From the NCBI RefSeq assembly GCF_001677475.2, contig NZ_CP015229.1: 64,000 nt of DNA; one strand, 5' to 3'. The notes beneath the pieces were generated by a model. The model saw nothing but the letters and a program-made list of their open reading frames with translations. It made no database searches and was not told the origin of the DNA. Source of the DNA: Escherichia coli (GTDB lineage Bacteria; Pseudomonadota; Gammaproteobacteria; Enterobacterales; Enterobacteriaceae). Both the position numbers and the translations under genes were made by a program. Of the stretch, positions 29,810 through 49,748 are shown in pieces (the first letter of the stretch is position 1; each line of letters opens with the position of its first letter).

Positions 29810-30304
29810 ATGTCTGAATATCGTCGTTATTACATCAAGGGGGGAACATGGTTTTTCACGGTAAATTTACTGAATCGTCGAAGCCAGCTTTTGACCACCC
29901 AGTACCAGACGCTCCGTAACGCCATTGTTAAAGTTAAGCGAGCCAGACCTTTTGAAATTAACGCCTGGGTAGTTTTGCCGGAGCATATGCACTGTATCTG
30001 GACATTACCCGAAAGCGATGATGATTTTTCCTCTCGCTGGCGGGAGATTAAAAAGCAATTTACCCATGCTTGTGGATTGAAAAATATCTGGCAACCGCGT
30101 TTTTGGGAGCACGCCATCCGCAATACGAAAGATTATCGCCATCATATTGATTATATTTATATAAATCCAGTAAAGCATGGTTGGGTAAAGCAGGTGAGTG
30201 ATTGGCCATTCTCAACGTTCCATCGCGATGTCGCGCAAGGGTTATATCCCATCGATTGGGCGGGAGACGTAACGGATTTTAGTGCCGGGGAGCGTATCAT
30301 TTTA

Positions 30305-30307
<3 letters not shown>
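29810..30307 (+). CDS. rayT: REP-associated tyrosine transposase RayT
   Basis: 165 aa matching RayT/YafM; flanked by REP elements. Confidence 0.88.
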
Positions 30308-36748: not shown

Positions 36749-36904
36749 GGCGTACTTTCTCTGCTGTAATGGTATGGGCGTTTTTGTGCACACAAATCCG
36801 GCAGTGACACAAGGTGAACTATTAAATAGAGGGGGCGTGAAAGGGGCAAATTATTAATAGGGTGAAAAAATAATTAAATTATTAAAGGGTGAGGTATCAG
36901 GCAT

Positions 36905-37020
<116 letters not shown>

Positions 37021-37134
37021 CATTGTTTAAACTAAAATAATATTTTTATTATCGTTTAATTCAAACTTATTAAGCCTGCCGGTGATACGCTTCAGAACAT
37101 CCTGATTATTGTCGCTACTTATATCGTTCACCCT

Positions 37135-38121
37135 ATGTCTGAACTTATTGCAACTGCCGCTTCCAGCATTAACGCTTTTACTCTGGCAAAGCGTGTCGCC
37201 GCATTTAACGTGCCGGTGCTCATTCAGGGCGAAACCGGCGCGGGCAAAGAATGCGTGGCGAAATATATTCACACCGTAGCCTTTGGTGAAAATGATAACG
37301 CGCCCTATATCGGCGTGAACTGCGCGGCGATCCCGGAAAACATGCTGGAAGCTACATTATTTGGCTACGACAAAGGCGCATTTACCGGCGCAATTGCCAG
37401 CGTGCCAGGCAAAATGGAACTGGCAAATAACGGCACCTTATTGCTCGATGAAATTGGCGATATGCCGCTGGCATTACAGGCCAAAATATTACGCGTATTG
37501 CAGGAACAGCAGGTTGAGCGATTAGGCAGCAACCGACAAATTAAACTCAATTTTCGCCTGATTGCCTGCACCAATAAAAACCTTGAACAGGAAGTCGCTG
37601 CCGGGCGTTTTCGTGAAGATCTCTATTATCGTCTGGCGGTTATTCCTATTACCATGCCGCCGCTGCGTGAACGTTTGAACGATATTATTCCGCTGGCAGA
37701 GTCATTTATAAAAAAATACTCCACGGTGCTGGTGAAAAATATCACCCTTTCGGAATCTACCCGCCGTGCGCTGCTGAATTACCGCTGGCCGGGTAATGTG
37801 CGCCAGCTGGAAAACGCCATTCAGCGGGGAATGATTTTAAATCGCGACGGCGTGATTTACCCGGACGCGTTAGGCCTGCCGGAAAATGACATTGCCGACC
37901 ACAGCGAACTGCAATGGCCCATTCAGCCCTCCGTATCTGTTGCGGAAACCAGCGATTTAGGCCAGGCCGGACGTAGCGCCCAGTATCAATATATCGCCGA
38001 CCTGATGCGTAAATATCAGGGCAACCGCAGCAAAATTGCCGACCTGTTAGGCATTACCCCGCGCGCACTGCGCTATCGACTGGCCTCCATGCGCAAGCAC
38101 GGTATTGAAGTTTTCTCCTGA
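37135..38121 (+). CDS. lafK: Sigma-54-dependent transcriptional activator LafK (no receiver domain)
   Basis: AAA+ sigma-54 interaction domain starts at about residue 20 (GETGAGKE Walker A); C-terminal HTH; 328 aa. Confidence 0.85.
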   Translation: MSELIATAASSINAFTLAKRVAAFNVPVLIQGETGAGKECVAKYIHTVAFGENDNAPYIGVNCAAIPENMLEATLFGYDKGAFTGAIASVPGKMELANNGTLLLDEIGDMPLALQAKILRVLQEQQVERLGSNRQIKLNFRLIACTNKNLEQEVAAGRFREDLYYRLAVIPITMPPLRERLNDIIPLAESFIKKYSTVLVKNITLSESTRRALLNYRWPGNVRQLENAIQRGMILNRDGVIYPDALGLPENDIADHSELQWPIQPSVSVAETSDLGQAGRSAQYQYIADLMRKYQGNRSKIADLLGITPRALRYRLASMRKHGIEVFS

Positions 38122-44113: not shown

Positions 44114-46558
44114 TTACCCCAACGCCTCCACAATCACCATTGCCGCCCGTTCCCCCGCCTTGCCATCCATAAACGCGTCGCAATAGTGATGGCGAATCTC
44201 CGCCAGCTTCGCCTGCAACGCCTTCCAGTCAAACGCCTCTGACAGCAGATAACGCAGTTCCGCCATATCGTGAGCGACGGGTAATATCGCGCGGATTCGC
44301 TGATCGGCGCTTTCAGGCGTGGAGTAGCTTTGCTCGCCATCGAGCAGTTCCGTCATGCCCGAAAAGTCGAGCAGGATCACCCGCTTATCAACGTGGATAG
44401 CATCGAAAATAAAGCCGCTGTTATCGGTGAGCACGTAATCGGCCTTTGCCAGTAGCGCCAGCGTGTGACGGGCGGAGTCGGTGCGCTGTTTTAAATGTCT
44501 GCGCGCCAGGGCCAGCGACGCCGCTTCTTCCGGGCGCGCGCAGGTGCCGTGGTGCAGTTTGCAAATCAGGTTCACATCACCGCTTAAGCGCCCCAATTTT
44601 TCTGCCCAGTGGGGCAGGGAGCTTAATGTGCCAAACGTGGGGGCGTAGAGCACCGTAGTTTTACGAAAATCGGGTTGGATATTTTCCGGCAACGAACGAT
44701 CGAAAGTGCCGTTATGCCAGGTGTCGAAGCGCGGGTTGCCAACCACTTTTGCATTGCCGAAATGTTCCAGCGCCTGCTGGCTGTAGTGGCTGTAACACAA
44801 AATGCGCTGATAAAAACGGTTCCAGTCGGCATGGTTCCACGTCTCTTTGGCTAAGCCGTACATGGCGCGGATGTTCACGGGGGAAAGGCCATTGAGCGCA
44901 GGCGTGTGGTAGGGGCTGACCAGGCATTTCACCCGCTGACCGTGTGCCTGCATTTCAGATAAGCGCATACCTTTAAGCTGCGGATCGACGATACTTTTTA
45001 GCGTCGCCAGCATTTCATCAAGAAACGGTTTAAACACGCGGTCGTTGATCACCAGCGTGCAACTCTGCCCCTGCGCCTGTAGGGATGTGATGATGGGGCG
45101 GTACAGCGCGTAGTGAAAGGAGGTTTCCATAAAAAAGCCGATGGTGTCGGCGATGGGTAACGCGGATGGCGTTGTGGCTACGGGCAATTTATTGAAAAAG
45201 TGACTAATATTATCAGTCACTTTTTGCTCGATATCACTAAAGCCCGGTCGCTGGTAACAAAGGCTCGGATAACAGGCCAGCCATTTGTCGGCGCGTAGCA
45301 GCGACTGCCAACACTCTTCAAGTGAGTGCTCATCGTTGCTCATCTGCTGCGCCAGTTGCGGGTAGTAGCGGCTGTTCACCAGATAAGCGCACACTTTGCG
45401 GCAGTCCCGCGCGTGCACCAGCCCCGGCAAACTTTTTAGCATCGTTCCCTGCGAAATTTCGCCGCCAAGGATCATCACCTGCCAGGGAATTTTCGCCAGG
45501 CTGGCCAGCAGAGTGTTCAGCACCTGAATATGTTTCTCCTGCTTGAGAATGACCGCGTCATCTTCCAGTAAAAGGTAGTTTTGCCAGCCCTGCCGTTGCG
45601 CCAGGCGCAGCGCCTGCAAGTGTGACTGCTGGCGGCCCCGTTGACCGTTTTCATCTTCGCAGGCGGCAAGGCGGGTGATCTTCTCAGGCGGAATATGCAG
45701 CAAAGCCAGTTCTTCACGGATCTGTTGTAAGCGATCCGGGCGTTTATCCAGATTCAGCAGAACGATCTGATCGATCACCTGATGGTTGATCGCCTGATGA
45801 TGAGTGGCGTTATGCAGACTCAGATAAGCATTGCGGAGCAGCGGATCGCGGACGATATCCGTAAGCGTCGCGTTTACTGGCGTGCTGGCCCCGAGAATAA
45901 AGTCTTTATCAAAGGTGTTGTGGCTGTGCGAGATACACAGAATCGTGCGCTCACCGGGCAGTTGTAGCGGGTTAACGCTGAAGTTATCGGTGAAACTTTT
46001 CTCTTCACCTAAATTGCAATCGTCATCGTAGCGGTGCTTTTTCAGGTAGTTACGGTGATAGCAAAAGGTGCCGTTGAGGATGTTATGCGAGCCAAAGCAG
46101 CGGCTTTTGAAAATGCGGTTGATATGGCTGTACCAGATGGGGATCTGGTCGGAACCGGAGATGAGCGCCCGGTGTTTTTGCATCATGGCGATGGTGTACG
46201 AGATTTTATCTGCCGGGTAGTAGTCGTCATCGTCCATGCAGAGGATGTATTCGCCGCGCGCCAGTTCGTTGAGCATATTACGTTTTTTGCCCAGCGGCAG
46301 TTTTTCCGGGTGATGGATGTAGCGGATATTGAAGGACTCCGGCTTGCCATTGGTCAGGCGGTCGATGATGTGTTGATGGCTTTGCGGGGAGTCGTCGAGG
46401 ATGACCAGTTCGCGGCGGTCTGCCGGGTAGTCCTGATAGCGGTACATATAGAGCAGGTACAGCAGGAATGCGCCGCGATTCCAGGTTGGCGTGACGACGC
46501 TGACAAATGGTTTTTCGCGGTGGGTGGCGAGTGTTTTGATGATGGTTGGTGTTGGCAT
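44114..46558 (-). CDS. Large multi-domain glycosyltransferase (GT2-like + GT25-like + CDP-glycerol glycerophosphotransferase-like C-terminus)
   Basis: About 815 aa; N-terminal GT-A region with VVTPTWNR and DDDDYY (DxD); middle LLNLDKRPDRL (GT25-like); C-terminal ...LYAPTFG...KLHHG... reminiscent of TagB/TagF; start uncertain. Confidence 0.65.
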   Translation of the reverse strand: MPTPTIIKTLATHREKPFVSVVTPTWNRGAFLLYLLYMYRYQDYPADRRELVILDDSPQSHQHIIDRLTNGKPESFNIRYIHHPEKLPLGKKRNMLNELARGEYILCMDDDDYYPADKISYTIAMMQKHRALISGSDQIPIWYSHINRIFKSRCFGSHNILNGTFCYHRNYLKKHRYDDDCNLGEEKSFTDNFSVNPLQLPGERTILCISHSHNTFDKDFILGASTPVNATLTDIVRDPLLRNAYLSLHNATHHQAINHQVIDQIVLLNLDKRPDRLQQIREELALLHIPPEKITRLAACEDENGQRGRQQSHLQALRLAQRQGWQNYLLLEDDAVILKQEKHIQVLNTLLASLAKIPWQVMILGGEISQGTMLKSLPGLVHARDCRKVCAYLVNSRYYPQLAQQMSNDEHSLEECWQSLLRADKWLACYPSLCYQRPGFSDIEQKVTDNISHFFNKLPVATTPSALPIADTIGFFMETSFHYALYRPIITSLQAQGQSCTLVINDRVFKPFLDEMLATLKSIVDPQLKGMRLSEMQAHGQRVKCLVSPYHTPALNGLSPVNIRAMYGLAKETWNHADWNRFYQRILCYSHYSQQALEHFGNAKVVGNPRFDTWHNGTFDRSLPENIQPDFRKTTVLYAPTFGTLSSLPHWAEKLGRLSGDVNLICKLHHGTCARPEEAASLALARRHLKQRTDSARHTLALLAKADYVLTDNSGFIFDAIHVDKRVILLDFSGMTELLDGEQSYSTPESADQRIRAILPVAHDMAELRYLLSEAFDWKALQAKLAEIRHHYCDAFMDGKAGERAAMVIVEALG

Positions 46559-46599
46559 GGTGTTTGGGTGAGTTAAGGGGTGAATGTGATGAATGTGCG

Positions 46600-46725
46600 C
46601 GCTGATGCCCTCACCCCGACCCTCTCCCACAGGGAGAGGGAGAGAACCAGCGCCGATTTTAATACCGTGCTCGATCGGTTCCCTCGCCCCTTTGGGGAGA
46701 GGGTTAGGGTGAGGGGCAAAGCGCG
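46600..46725. repeat. GC-rich ~120-bp palindromic intergenic repeat (full copy)
   Basis: GCCCTCACCCCGACCCTCTCCCACAGGGAGAGGG ... GGGGAGAGGGTTAGGGTGAGGGG; near-identical copies at 53.96 and 56.24 kb. Confidence 0.5.
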
Positions 46726-46736
46726 CACAGAGCGAC

Positions 46737-47666
46737 TCACGTCAGCAGCGAAAACGCTGAAAGCAGCGGCTCTGCCGCACATAACGACTGAATTTGCTGG
46801 CGAATAAACAGCGCATTTTCACTGGTCCGCCAGCGTTCAAACATGGCGAAGAGGGCGAAAATATCCTCCTTCCGCAGCGGAGAACCATCCAGCGTCCATA
46901 AACTGATTAACGTGCGGATAAGATAAAAATCGCACACCAGCGGGAAATAATCCGCCCCGTCTGCCTGCCCGATCGCATCGTGGTAAACGCGGTAGATCAG
47001 GTAATTACGCAAAATCCAGGGTGAAGTGGTGAAATGCTGCTGCCAGGTAGTTTGCCACTGCGCCTGAAGCTGCTGATGTAACAGGGCTTCGCTGTTGGCG
47101 TCATGCAATGTCAGTAAAGAAACCTGCAACGGCAGCGAGGCTTTGCGCGGGCTTTCCGGCAGAATCGACCAGTCAAACGCAAAACTTCCGAGCAGCGTCA
47201 CCAGCTGGCGTGCCAGCTGTGGCACAGGTGGCAACTGGGCGAACTGTGCCTGTAGCGTACCTTTTCGCGCATGGTCGGCCAGCGCCTGCGGCAGCGTCGT
47301 CAAACGGGCCAGAGTATCGCCATTCTTGCCCGGCATTTTACTGGCGCGGGAGAGCAGGATACCGACGGCATACAGTGACAATTCCGGGGTTAAATCGGCG
47401 AGCGTAAGGGTGCTCAAAATGACCTGGTTTAATATCACATCGCGTGCGGAAAGCTCACTGGCACTCTCTTCCATAGACCGATAGGTGAGCTGTAATTCAA
47501 ACGCACTGGCGTCGTTGAGCACCGCTTCGCAGCTTTCTGGCTCTGTAAGCATCAGACTCAGGCGAATTTCATTTTTCCATACCTTGCGGACATACAAAGG
47601 CGAACCAGGATGTTGTGCAATAAATTTGCGCACAAATTCAGGTTCGTAACATTCAATAAAACTCAT
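46737..47666 (-). CDS. Hypothetical protein within Flag-2 locus
   Basis: Roughly 310-aa ORF, no recognised motifs; start uncertain. Confidence 0.45.
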   Translation of the reverse strand: MSFIECYEPEFVRKFIAQHPGSPLYVRKVWKNEIRLSLMLTEPESCEAVLNDASAFELQLTYRSMEESASELSARDVILNQVILSTLTLADLTPELSLYAVGILLSRASKMPGKNGDTLARLTTLPQALADHARKGTLQAQFAQLPPVPQLARQLVTLLGSFAFDWSILPESPRKASLPLQVSLLTLHDANSEALLHQQLQAQWQTTWQQHFTTSPWILRNYLIYRVYHDAIGQADGADYFPLVCDFYLIRTLISLWTLDGSPLRKEDIFALFAMFERWRTSENALFIRQQIQSLCAAEPLLSAFSLLT

Positions 47667-47793
47667 AGGAGGCTTCCAGTCTTTAATGCTGAACAGGAAT
47701 TGCAATTACCGTGCCGGAAAATTTTTTAATATAAAACAAAGAATTGTTTTTCAGGCGGAAAATCCATTTCCGCTATGGGGGAAGGAATGGTCA

Positions 47794-48593: not shown

Positions 48594-49331
48594 TTACTCC
48601 GCGCCTACCGTCGTCACCACGCCGCTTTCCGCCACCATCGCGCTGATGACCCGCTGGCTGCTGGCGTTACGTACTTTCACCATCTCGCCTTTGCGACCAT
48701 TTTTCAGCGCCACGCCGGGCATCGAGGCGGTGATCCCCGCGTTCTGGAAAACAATCATCACCGGCTGATCGCGCTCGACCAGCACCGGAGACACCAGTTC
48801 TTCTTTGGTAAGCGGCCTGCCTGGTTGCAGCGCGTGCTTACTGCTTAAACCAATCGCGTCATCGAGCTCCATCAACACATCGCGACGCTGGGCGCTGACG
48901 TTGTAGGGCTTCAGCTCCACATCATTCGCGGTGAGAGGCGTATCGCGGGCAATCAGTGACTTCGCCATCACCACCGGCACCAGAACATCCGGGCGCACCG
49001 CCACGTTCATCTGCCAGCTTTGCGGGCAACTGACGGTGAAGTTCATGCGGTTGAGGGCGATTTCCGCAGGCGATGTCAGCGTGACGCCGGGTGTTGTAAT
49101 ACAGGGCGCGGCGGTCGCAATCTGCGACGGAATATAGACCTTAAAGGTGTAGCGATAGTCATGCCATTGCCGCTGTTGCGCCAGCGATTCAATTTCCTGG
49201 CTCGCGGCATTCAGCACCTGGGCGTTGACTTGTTCCCGCGCGCTGTGTTGCACGGGGTGGACGGCGGCGTAGCCCGGTAAGGCCAGCACCAGGAGGAAGA
49301 ACAACTTCCGCCTGCAAAATTGAAAACTCAT
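48594..49331 (-). CDS. lfgA: Flag-2 P-ring assembly chaperone LfgA (FlgA homologue)
   Basis: 245 aa, signal peptide, FlgA-like C-terminal domain; divergent from lfgB. Confidence 0.8.
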   Translation of the reverse strand: MSFQFCRRKLFFLLVLALPGYAAVHPVQHSAREQVNAQVLNAASQEIESLAQQRQWHDYRYTFKVYIPSQIATAAPCITTPGVTLTSPAEIALNRMNFTVSCPQSWQMNVAVRPDVLVPVVMAKSLIARDTPLTANDVELKPYNVSAQRRDVLMELDDAIGLSSKHALQPGRPLTKEELVSPVLVERDQPVMIVFQNAGITASMPGVALKNGRKGEMVKVRNASSQRVISAMVAESGVVTTVGAE

Positions 49332-49360
49332 AAACCCTTTCTCATCAGTGACTTAAAAAA

Positions 49361-49376
49361 TGGCACGGCGATTGCT
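49361..49376 (+). promoter_or_regulatory. Sigma-54 (-24/-12) promoter candidate for lfgB operon
   Basis: TGGCAC-GGCGA-TTGCT matches TGGCAC-N5-TTGCW, about 35 bp upstream of the lfgB start. Confidence 0.55.
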
Positions 49377-49412
49377 TAGCGTATGCGTATTGAAGCAGGA
49401 GTGACGCAGGAA

Positions 49413-49748
49413 ATGGGGATCAGTTTTCAACAGGCATTGGGAGTGCATCCGCAGGCAGTGAAGTTACGTCTTGAGAGGACCGAGCTACTGACTGCGAATC
49501 TGGCGAATGTCGATACGCCAAATTTCAAGGCTAAAGATATTGATTTTGCCAGGGAGATGCAACGGGCAAATAACGTGGCGGTGGATGTCCAGTACCGCGT
49601 GCCGATGCAGCCGTCGGAAGATGGCAACACCGTGGAACTGAACAGCGAACAGGCGCGGTTTTCACAAAATAGTATGGATTATCAAAGCAGTTTGACCTTT
49701 CTGAATCTGCAAATTAGCGGCATCAGAGAGGCCATTGAAGGGAAATAA
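49413..49748 (+). CDS. lfgB: Flag-2 rod protein LfgB (FlgB homologue)
   Basis: About 111 aa with ...ANLANVDTPNFKAKD... rod-protein N-terminal motif. Confidence 0.85.
   Translation: MGISFQQALGVHPQAVKLRLERTELLTANLANVDTPNFKAKDIDFAREMQRANNVAVDVQYRVPMQPSEDGNTVELNSEQARFSQNSMDYQSSLTFLNLQISGIREAIEGK

Follow-up and report, generated by a model that had tools for sequence, protein, structure and literature searches.

Which promoters does a sigma-54 activator without a sensory domain act on, through which sites does it reach them, and how is its activity controlled? These questions are raised by the Flag-2 (lateral-type) flagellar locus in the 64-kb stretch of Escherichia DNA analysed here, hereafter the window. 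The locus contains lafK (37135..38121, plus strand), recognised from its open reading frame, translation, Pfam domains, motifs and synteny as the gene of a 328-aa, receiver-less sigma-54 activator. The Flag-2 locus is known from E. coli 042 (Ren et al. 2005, cited in PMC6993521), where the LafK protein (CAH19120.1) is the product of the same gene, flanked by the same neighbours, with lfiM divergent and lfiE-J downstream; a nucleotide divergence of ~4% from that locus points to a sister Escherichia lineage. We found the Flag-2 region in 1275 of 5426 complete E. coli genomes (about a quarter), and a screen of Enterobacterales reported it in ~15% (PMC6993521). Little work has so far been done on how it is regulated and what it does. 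None of the Flag-2 reading frames of the window appears to be interrupted, and the locus is apparently intact over the part covered, the window ending inside cluster 3.

That the Flag-2 regulator LafK of Escherichia lacks a sensory domain is already described, and our finding adds no new kind of regulator. The detail that is new against the literature searched is a conserved repeat ahead of three promoters, which is probably the site that LafK binds.

LafK and its orthologues

The lafK gene heads the lafK-lfiEFGHIJ operon, according to the ORF map and synteny. There is no in-frame start upstream of it: between the preceding in-frame stop and its ATG no other start codon is possible, which rules out an N-terminal extension. 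Pfam places Sigma54_activat (PF00158, E = 6.5e-64) at residues 6-172, which marks LafK as an AAA+ protein of the sigma-54 interaction type, followed by AAA_lid_14 at residues 178-246 and HTH_8 at residues 284-317, with no receiver or other domain N-terminal to the AAA+ domain. A preliminary description of this locus had LafK begin shortly before its Walker A motif and lack an N-terminal regulatory domain. Both statements hold, except that the distance, given there as ~20 residues, comes to ~31, since Walker A (GETGAGKE) begins at residue 32. Every motif that we checked is intact, including the sigma-54-contact loop GAFTGA (residues 81-86), Walker B (LLLDE, at residue 102), FREDLYYRL (at 159) and PGNVRQL (at 219). 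Judged by these motifs and domains, LafK is complete for ATP hydrolysis and sigma-54 contact, and is a bacterial enhancer-binding protein cut down to the AAA+ motor and a Fis-type HTH. The HTH_8 segment (37984..38085, plus strand; PF02954, E = 7.4e-9) aligns with that of Vibrio LafK, in which the recognition-helix region is kept. The ORFs and Pfam matches of the window make LafK the sole enhancer-binding protein encoded in the Flag-2 locus. The rpoN gene is located outside the window.

Is the short form peculiar to this genome? LafK has 97% identity with the E. coli cluster of LafK proteins (328 aa) and 59-84% with other Enterobacterales orthologues, which measure 324-348 aa and have the identical domain set in more than 12 enterobacterial genera, among them Citrobacter, Leminorella, Enterobacter, Pseudescherichia, Scandinavium, Atlantibacter, Siccibacter, Budvicia, Pantoea, Hafnia, Pragia and Regiella. 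Synteny around the gene is identical in three of the other short-LafK genera, and a dN/dS of 0.05-0.11 indicates purifying selection. The position of lafK, divergent from lfiM..lfhA and directly 5' of lfiE-J, fits the LafK orthologous group and is equal in Vibrio campbellii, except that motY_L lies upstream there. V. campbellii LafK (444 aa; 48% identity across the AAA+ domain and HTH) retains a degenerate N-terminal receiver of ~120 aa, whose Pfam score is sub-threshold and whose phospho-acceptor position lacks an Asp. In the alignment, the first residue of the window LafK corresponds to residue 123 of this protein, and tblastn with the Vibrio N-terminus as query detected no receiver remnant in the DNA upstream of lafK. 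The concern raised earlier, that orthologues might carry an N-terminal domain missing here through assembly error, is borne out as regards the Vibrio receiver but not as regards its cause: on these comparisons, the receiver-less LafK is a lineage-wide, selected state in Enterobacterales and not an assembly error.

Two metagenome proteins, P0056 and P0065 (463 and 462 aa), join a receiver to a LafK-like C-terminus. We rejected P0056 as a chimeric assembly, its identity rising from ~45% to ~97% at FREDLYYRL, and P0065 was dismissed as chimeric by analogy with P0056, without an alignment. A search of 1.84 billion representative proteins was dominated by generic activators and served only to pick short FlrC-like proteins; receiver-less FlrC-like genes occupy the same slot, upstream of fliE-fliF, in other Gammaproteobacteria.

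Predicted sigma-54 promoters

Exact matches to TGGCAC-N5-TTGC number only two on both strands of the window, where 0.27 would be expected from shuffled sequences (two matches were reached in 2 of 100 shuffles). Both had been proposed as sigma-54 sites in the preliminary description; they are present as quoted there and conserved across ~30 species, their distance from lfgB and lafB being fixed. The first (49361..49375, plus strand; TGGCACGGCGATTGC, with 49361-49376 reading TGGCACGGCGATTGCT) is the predicted -24/-12 promoter of lfgBCDEFGHIJKL, and the second (62204..62218, plus strand; TGGCACGCCTTTTGC, with 62204-62219 reading TGGCACGCCTTTTGCC) that of the lafB operon. Each is intergenic and lies on the same strand as the downstream operon. 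A third candidate, absent from the earlier list, lies at 47702..47716 on the minus strand (CGGCACGGTAATTGC) and precedes the flagellin-modification operon in variable region 1. All three have GG and GC ten bases apart, are oriented correctly and stand 20-50 nt 5' of a start codon.

The lfgB transcript is predicted to start near 49387 and that of lafB near 62230. The filament cap gene lafB (FliD-like; 62251..63567, plus strand) has its ATG at 62251. For the rod protein gene lfgB, the ATG of the ORF list (49383) lies 5' of the predicted transcription start, and the ATG at 49413 (MGISFQQ...), where the alignments of all homologues begin, is likely to be the true start; we corrected lfgB to 49413..49748 (plus strand). 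Behind the third promoter comes first a FliB-like gene (46737..47666, minus strand), whose 309-aa product is a distant relative of flagellin lysine-N-methylase (NCBIfam NF038110 at 48.6 bits, under the cut-off of 85; no Pfam match), and then a gene for an 838-aa family-2 glycosyltransferase (44114..46630, minus strand; PF00535).

Comparison among enterobacterial loci found TGGCA[CT]-N5-TTGC ahead of lfgB in 30 of 30 cases (33-47 nt from the ATG), ahead of lafB in 25 of 25 other loci and ahead of the FliB-like gene in 18 of 20. The N5 spacer varies from locus to locus while TGGCA[CT] and TTGC persist. We strongly infer that the lfgB-L, lafB and flagellin-modification operons carry conserved predicted -24/-12 promoters, three sites that Ren et al. 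2005 may already have listed.

An inverted repeat upstream of the promoters

Enhancer-like inverted repeats, which the preliminary description proposed to look for upstream of these promoters, were searched for and found, in the form GGAAR-N5-YTTCC. Candidate LafK enhancers of this form lie at 49295..49309 (GGAAGAACAACTTCC), 51 nt 5' of the -24 element of lfgB and overlapping the first codons of the divergent lfgA, and at 62148..62162 (GGAAACACGCTTTCC), 41 nt 5' of the -24 element of lafB. The repeat ahead of the third promoter (47757..47771; GGAAATGGATTTTCC read on the minus strand) is 40 nt upstream. These are the three exact copies in 64 kb, one for each promoter and 40-51 nt upstream of it, a count that is circular within the window because the pattern was derived from these very sites; the independent test is the cross-species comparison only, and the species compared are related. 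Here the repeat stands without mismatch at the corresponding place in 30 of 30 independent loci for lfgB, 25 of 25 for lafB and 17 of 18 for the third promoter, its centre (N5) varying freely. It is found without mismatch in ~30 other species and in Vibrio. Of the 83 exact copies counted in 761 kb of sequence from enterobacterial loci, 73 sit 5' of such a promoter, and the gaps between repeat and promoter group at 40-41, 50-53 and 61 nt, that is, in steps of one helical turn. A conserved dyad kept in this way on one helical face upstream of promoters has the architecture of an enhancer. The same arrangement of repeat, IHF-like site and promoter occurs at V. campbellii flgB_L and fliD_L. Records from Aeromonas caviae and Vibrio breoganii were discarded as comparison loci, as they hold polar or other flagellar clusters with no repeat.

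Most enhancer-binding activators of this kind use at least two sites. We found one strong dyad per promoter, which we count against the repeat being a LafK enhancer. On the lafB side there is a second, weaker copy (62125..62139; GGCAGGCTTTTTTCC, one mismatch) 23 bp 5' of the main repeat, of which the 3' half-site alone is widely conserved. NtrC sites are of the 6-N5-6 type, and by analogy the 5-N5-5 geometry of our dyad would suit a dimeric HTH_8 domain; the HTH_8 of LafK is the presumed reader of the repeat.

The lafB module also has a perfect match to the IHF consensus between repeat and promoter (62174..62186, minus strand; AATCAAGAGATTG, that is, WATCAANNNNTTR). The IHF-like site of the third promoter (47737..47749, minus strand; AAACAATTCTTTG) has one mismatch and is perfect in Citrobacter, and that of lfgB (49343..49355, plus strand; CATCAGTGACTTA) has two, with zero or one in Citrobacter, Phytobacter and others. 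Taken as consensus matches only, such sites are perfect in 19 of 74 modules (26%) and have one mismatch in 30 of 74, against 0.7% and 11%, respectively, in shuffled spacers, and the position of the real sites is fixed. The lfgB site lies nearer the promoter and in the opposite orientation relative to the other two, and may be something other than an IHF site.

The literature we searched contains no description of a LafK binding site. We think the balance tips slightly in favour of GGAAR-N5-YTTCC being an undescribed LafK recognition element (a 'LafK box') common to lateral flagellar systems from Vibrio to Enterobacterales, with or without a pseudo-receiver in LafK, and of a conversion of an FlrC-type checkpoint activator through receiver loss. 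If this is true, DNA sequence would suffice to delineate the LafK regulon, by way of the LafK box combined with the -24/-12 element, and Enterobacterales would have turned an FlrC-type checkpoint activator into a hard-wired one by losing the receiver. The gene of this hard-wired LafK would share its transcript with genes for the MS ring, C ring and export apparatus, structures that FlrC-type systems normally monitor for completion. The 15-bp repeat is open to mutation and offers a pattern with which genomes can be searched for further LafK targets.

Cluster 1 and the lfiM-lafK intergenic region

No comparable site had been seen upstream of lfiM or lafK in the preliminary description, and our scans agree. 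The divergent intergenic region (36749..37134) is AT-rich (~43% GC vs 54% for the window) and contains neither a sigma-54 site on either strand (at most two mismatches, GG/GC fixed) nor GGAAR-N5-YTTCC. At up to one mismatch, no sigma-54 site was found upstream of lfiM or lafK in Citrobacter, Leminorella, Hafnia or V. campbellii, and the cluster 1 operons (lfiM and lafK) are without both elements in five genera. A sigma-70 scan of the region returned one weak match towards lfiM, at chance level, and outside Escherichia and Citrobacter the intergenic sequences diverge too far to be aligned for footprinting. The region holds a REP/BIME element with an naRNA4 match (36931-37007). We rejected the presence of a riboswitch or other known RNA family in the leader of lafK, this REP-derived family being the only one matched here and none being matched in Citrobacter. 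The lfiM and lafK promoters are presumed from these scans to be class I, that is, LafK-independent.

A model of LafK action and its alternatives

How would these elements work together? We consider it probable, from the sequence comparisons above, that LafK is controlled via its own transcription, binds the repeats and activates the three sigma-54 operons. LafK dimers would bind (gc)GGAAR-N5-YTTCC(gc), with its centre between about -75 and -85, hexamer assembly would be aided by a weaker half-site lying another two helical turns 5', and an IHF-type bend would deliver the hexamer to the closed sigma-54 holoenzyme for ATP-driven opening. The targets would be lfgB-L (rod, hook and rings), the operon beginning with lafB (cap and chaperones, to which the published gene order adds the motor and LafS, a sigma-28 factor) and the flagellin-modification operon. 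As lfiMNPQR-lfhBA and lafK-lfiEFGHIJ are without both elements, LafK would be made from LafK-independent promoters, and would be co-produced with the MS ring, the C ring and the export apparatus.

Since it has no receiver, LafK is probably active once made, constitutively so by analogy. Against this, receiver deletion inactivates some NtrC-type activators. Control would lie in lafK transcription, through the AT-rich upstream region and possibly with LafZ or host-factor input, and not in phosphorylation. LafZ (59801..60694, minus strand) is a candidate controller of lafK expression: it is a CadC/ToxR-like regulator with an N-terminal winged helix (Pfam Trans_reg_C, residues 42-114; weak NCBIfam CadC-like match), termed a 'transmembrane regulator' in PMC6993521. 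The map yields a testable three-tier hierarchy, with the lfiM and lafK operons as class I, the lfgB, lafB and flagellin-modification operons as class II (LafK/sigma-54) and a class III that is presumably sigma-28-dependent. By-eye inspection of 60695-61128 did not settle on a sigma-28 promoter for lafA.

Is LafK free of any partner? A protein or ligand could gate its AAA+ domain post-translationally, as in the pairs PspA-PspF and HrpV-HrpS or with FleN and c-di-GMP acting on FleQ, and LafK would then not be constitutive. To our knowledge, all well-studied receiver-less activators have a gating partner. In V. parahaemolyticus, LafV, a degenerate EAL protein, represses surface genes 'in the presence of LafK' (PMC9303241). 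Against such gating, a non-systematic search recognised no PspA-, HrpV-, FleN- or LafV-like gene among the Flag-2 genes of the window, and we consider it unlikely, though by no means far-fetched. A partner of LafK could be encoded outside the window.

Alternatively, the repeat may be the target of another DNA-binding protein, such as LafZ, a regulator of the host or a protein of the nucleoid, with LafK acting from elsewhere on the DNA or from solution in the manner of activators that have no DNA-binding domain. LafZ is indeed a DNA-binding regulator encoded in the locus, and the flagellar activators FlgR and FleT work without DNA binding (PMC3162934). However, the HTH_8 of LafK is conserved under purifying selection, the repeat is strictly tied to sigma-54 promoters, as the 73 of 83 copies illustrate, and it stands at V. 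campbellii lateral promoters, where LafK is present and tblastn found no LafZ homologue in two stretches (~47 kb). Winged-helix proteins of the CadC/ToxR type usually read direct repeats and not dyads, which also speaks against LafZ as the repeat binder. A binder other than LafK thus appears distinctly improbable.

The idea that lafK is short through decay or mis-assembly of a receiver-bearing gene, and that the locus is cryptic, for which one could invoke the ~120-aa degenerate receiver of Vibrio LafK, the two database proteins with a receiver fused to a LafK-like C-terminus, and strains with a non-functional Flag-2, such as E. coli 042 and those with various deletions (PMC4481668, PMC6993521), is barely credible in view of the equal length and domain set of orthologues from more than 12 genera, the low dN/dS and intact motifs, the lack of any receiver trace upstream of lafK by tblastn, the metagenomic origin of those two proteins (P0056 chimeric, P0065 judged by analogy) and the Flag-2 reading frames of the window, which all appear open.

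Comparison with known systems

LafK has been grouped before with PspF and HrpRS among activators without a signal domain (Francke 2011, PMC3162934), and in V. parahaemolyticus, where it is the master activator of the lateral flagella, it acts with sigma-54 on the class II lateral flagellar genes, whose expression is reported to require it (PMC4481668). LafK of V. parahaemolyticus and V. campbellii is likewise a sigma-54 activator encoded directly upstream of the lateral fliE-J, but the Vibrio protein has 444 aa with a degenerate receiver and its gene is preceded by motY_L, whereas the window LafK has 328 aa and no receiver. Many lateral flagellar operons of Aeromonas hydrophila are reported to be LafK-independent (PMC4481668), so the LafK hierarchy is not universal.

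The likeness to PspF put forward in the preliminary description applies to architecture and not to sequence. The two proteins have a common domain plan, with the AAA+ domain near residue 1, a C-terminal HTH and no sensory domain. LafK scores 237.2 bits with the PspF model TIGR02974, against a cut-off of 443.55, and 205 against 529 with PRK11608; its PDB match to PspF has E = 2.5e-53, against 5e-75 for the AAA+ domain of V. cholerae FlrC (4qhs), its nearest solved structure. These model scores and E values place LafK closer to FlrC than to PspF. In NCBIfam, FlbD is the top flagellar match and FlgR ranks lower, with all scores far below the cut-offs. PspF also uses an enhancer and IHF arrangement. 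A non-exhaustive look at the locus ORFs in the window recognised no PspA-type inhibitor gene.

HrpR/S form a hetero-hexamer restrained by HrpV. HrpR/HrpS and FleT (type Ic of Francke et al. 2011, PMC3162934) represent LafK's architectural class and, as with LafK, control secretion-type or flagellar machines; FleT is without an HTH (PMC3162934), whereas LafK has an HTH and is encoded by one gene.

FlrC, FleR, FlgR and FlbD carry a phosphorylatable receiver and have a partner kinase, whereas LafK has neither, the ORFs of the window including no kinase gene in the Flag-2 locus. In genomic position LafK nevertheless resembles FlrC and FleR: lafK fills the flrC/fleR slot directly 5' of fliE-fliFGHIJ, and its predicted targets include the rod/hook operon.

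LafK and its short form

The window protein is LafK of the Flag-2 locus, which has been described for E. coli 042 (PMC6993521). Its gene (37135-38121, plus strand, 328 aa) is flanked by the divergent lfiMNPQR-lfhBA genes and, downstream, by lfiEFGHIJ. At the DNA level the locus shares 95.7% identity with E. coli; the region is present in 1275/5426 complete E. coli genomes, which annotate this very protein of 328 aa. A RayT-type REP-associated tyrosine transposase gene (29810-30307, plus strand; NCBIfam 177.7 bits, cut-off 80) adjoins lfhA on its outer side. REP/BIME elements occur in the lfiM-lafK intergenic region (36931-37007; Rfam naRNA4, 82.6 bits) and downstream of lafA (62046-62080). Positions 1-20300 hold a type VI secretion cluster (TssK, TssM/IcmF, VgrG and a 1380-aa prePAAR-PAAR-Rhs effector), separated from Flag-2 by fadE-, gmhA-, yafK- and yafL-like genes.

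Pfam places the sigma-54 interaction AAA+ domain of LafK at residues 6-172, the AAA+ lid at 178-246 and a Fis-type HTH_8 at 284-317, with no further domain N-terminal to the AAA+ domain. The lafK ATG is the first possible start past an in-frame stop, so a longer LafK is impossible. The lack of an N-terminal regulatory domain, seen in the preliminary description, is thus borne out; its short lead before Walker A stands too, although this counts 31 residues rather than about 20, which leaves the point unchanged. All motifs are intact (Walker A GETGAGKE at residue 32, GAFTGA 81, Walker B 102, FREDLYYRL 159, PGNVRQL 219).

Could the domain have been lost here by assembly error? Orthologues from 12 genera (Citrobacter, Leminorella, Enterobacter, Pseudescherichia, Scandinavium, Atlantibacter, Siccibacter, Budvicia, Pantoea, Hafnia, Pragia and Regiella) are 59-98% identical, all 324-348 aa long and share the same domains. 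Synteny is identical in 3/3 genera examined, and dN/dS is 0.05-0.11 against E. coli, Citrobacter and Leminorella. By these comparisons the short form is real. Two metagenome 'proteins' (P0056 in locus L081, P0065 in L082) join a receiver and a foreign AAA+ N-half to a LafK-like C-half. We rejected both as receiver-bearing LafK: in P0056, identity jumps abruptly at FREDLYYRL from ~45% to ~97% with E. coli LafK, the mark of a chimeric assembly, and P0065 was set aside by analogy. Both are probably assembly chimeras, of a type that could mislead surveys of domain architecture.

Three conserved, predicted sigma-54 promoters

The window has just two exact matches to TGGCAC-N5-TTGC, one at 49361 and one at 62204 (0.27 expected from shuffles). 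Both are intergenic, on the correct strand for the downstream operon, and correspond to the promoters already proposed for lfgB and lafB. The lfgB start must be placed at ATG 49413, the position from which all homologues align; the predicted transcript would start near 49387. With mismatches permitted everywhere except in the invariant GG and GC, a scan gave a third site, CGGCACGGTAATTGC (47716-47702, minus strand). The gene 35 nt downstream of it encodes a distant 309-aa relative of FliB (flagellin lysine-N-methylase) and is followed by a family-2 glycosyltransferase gene. This methylase operon is the flagellin-modification cargo carried in variable region 1 (PMC6993521).

Conservation was assessed in species-representative genomes, using 76 loci that surround LfgI homologues, ~30 of them enterobacterial. 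In the enterobacterial loci TGGCA[CT]-N5-TTGC is kept upstream of lfgB (30/30), lafB (25/25) and the FliB-like gene (18/20), with N5 varying but the spacing to the start codon constant; the sites are absent from the betaproteobacterial relatives in the sample. Some records are possibly odd. Among L002 and L015, one titled Chryseobacterium sp. 18061 bears an enterobacterial-type Flag-2 locus (LfgI 79% identical), and in Pseudocitrobacter vendiensis LfgI is 99% identical to that of the window. The PLSDB 'plasmids' NZ_CP050465.1 and NZ_AP026896.1 are a Vibrio replicon of 2.06 Mb, probably chromosome II, and an Aeromonas chromosome of 4.9 Mb.

An inverted repeat upstream of each promoter

By comparing the three upstream regions with one another, we found the kind of enhancer-like repeat that the preliminary description had proposed to look for: GGAAR-N5-YTTCC, at lfgB, lafB and the methylase operon. 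Its three exact copies in the 64-kb window (47757, 49295, 62148) pair one to one with the promoters, preceding the -24 element by 40-51 nt; this count is circular, since the pattern was derived from those sites, and the independent test is provided by other genomes. There the repeat occurs without mismatch at the corresponding place in 30/30 (lfgB), 25/25 (lafB) and 17/18 (FliB-like gene) loci, its central five bases varying freely, and 73/83 exact copies in 761 kb of enterobacterial loci are promoter-associated. Flanks extend the dyad to gcGGAAR-N5-YTTCCgc, and a YTTCC half-site, two helical turns further up, is conserved in front of lafB and of the methylase operon. Repeat-to-promoter gaps cluster at 40-41, 50-53 and 61 nt, which keeps the repeat on one helix face. 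Between repeat and promoter, at a fixed position, is an IHF-like site, perfect at lafB; perfect matches occur in 26% of all repeat-spacer-promoter modules versus 0.7% of shuffled spacers.

The lfgB repeat falls inside the signal-peptide codons of divergent lfgA, whose start codon (49331, minus strand) lies between repeat and promoter (49295-49331); the repeat therefore encodes the RKLFFL part of the LfgA signal peptide. The promoter of lfgA has to overlap either the promoter or the 5' end of lfgB, and none was recognised for lfgAMN.

No -24/-12 site and no copy of the repeat is present in the lfiM-lafK intergenic region or the short lafK-lfiE gap, whether in the window, Citrobacter, Leminorella, Hafnia or Vibrio campbellii, so the absence first noted upstream of lfiM and lafK extends to four further genera. 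The lfiM-lafK region, AT-rich at 32-43% GC, shows little conservation and measures ~630 nt in Citrobacter, Leminorella and Hafnia versus ~386 nt in Escherichia. Escherichia has gained REP/BIME there and is missing ~190 nt found in Citrobacter immediately before the lafK start (comparison locus L078:7373-8000 versus window 36749-37134). The AT-rich lafZ-lafA region (60695-61128, 434 nt) likewise has neither element, and inspection by eye placed no clean sigma-28 promoter there for lafA, which encodes the flagellin.

The architecture of LafK and the conservation of all these cis elements are direct observations, around which we propose the following scheme. The lfiMNPQR-lfhBA and lafK-lfiEFGHIJ operons would be transcribed independently of LafK. 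LafK, receiver-less and presumably constitutive, would probably be active once made; it would be the protein reading the repeat, an IHF-type bend, presumably through IHF binding at the IHF-like site, would bring it to the promoter, and it would open sigma-54 holoenzyme at the three operons. LafZ, a CadC/ToxR-like protein of the locus, is one candidate for the upstream signal.

LafK, its missing sensory domain and the Flag-2 locus are already in the literature. The large comparative Flag-2 paper is silent on promoters (PMC6993521), and we found no definition of a LafK binding site in the literature searched, which did not cover the original Flag-2 and Vibrio papers; the repeat is thus possibly new. 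It is an incremental cis-element prediction inside the textbook design of enhancer, IHF and sigma-54.

Comparison with Vibrio LafK, PspF and FlrC

Vibrio campbellii shares the arrangement at flgB_L (GGAAGCGAGGCTTCC, 41 nt with a perfect IHF consensus, then TGGCATGCATCTTGT) and fliD_L (GGAAAAGCCGCTTCC, 53 nt, then AGGCACACATCTTGC). In Pseudomonas otitidis (L037:15640-15750) a FliD homologue is preceded by TGGCATCGGCCTTGC and, 77 nt further upstream, by a near-copy of the repeat, GGAAACCTGCATTCC, with flanks gc...tc, a hint that the element extends to a second flagellar system, in Pseudomonas.

The LafK ORF on Vibrio campbellii chromosome II, preceded by motY_L, is 444 aa long against 328 aa in the window and, unlike enterobacterial LafK, begins with a degenerate receiver (PF00072 22 bits, below threshold; no Asp at the acceptor position). 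The family is not receiver-less throughout. Residue 1 of window LafK aligns to Vibrio residue 123 and no receiver remnant is detectable in the DNA upstream of window lafK, so LafK of the enterobacteria is a clean truncation that is lineage-wide.

LafK has been listed with PspF and HrpRS among activators without a signal domain (Francke et al. 2011, PMC3162934). Its proposed resemblance to PspF holds for this architecture but not for sequence, which scores far under curated PspF cut-offs. Among solved structures LafK is closest to the FlrC AAA+ domain from V. cholerae; NifA, NtrC1 and FleQ follow, and PspF ranks much lower. The flrC/fleR slot is also occupied by receiver-less FlrC-like genes in two MAGs, one from Pseudomonadales and one from Steroidobacteraceae, and in one metagenome contig. 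In the Pseudomonadales MAG (L084:7772-11400), a FleQ gene and a gene for a 251-aa histidine kinase, apparently left without a receiver, are followed by a 350-aa receiver-less FlrC/FleR-like activator directly upstream of fliE; similar activators precede fliE in the non-enterobacterial loci L083 and L085 (~9300-11400). In Flag-2, lafK occupies the slot equivalent to that of flrC/fleR, directly upstream of fliE-fliFGHIJ.
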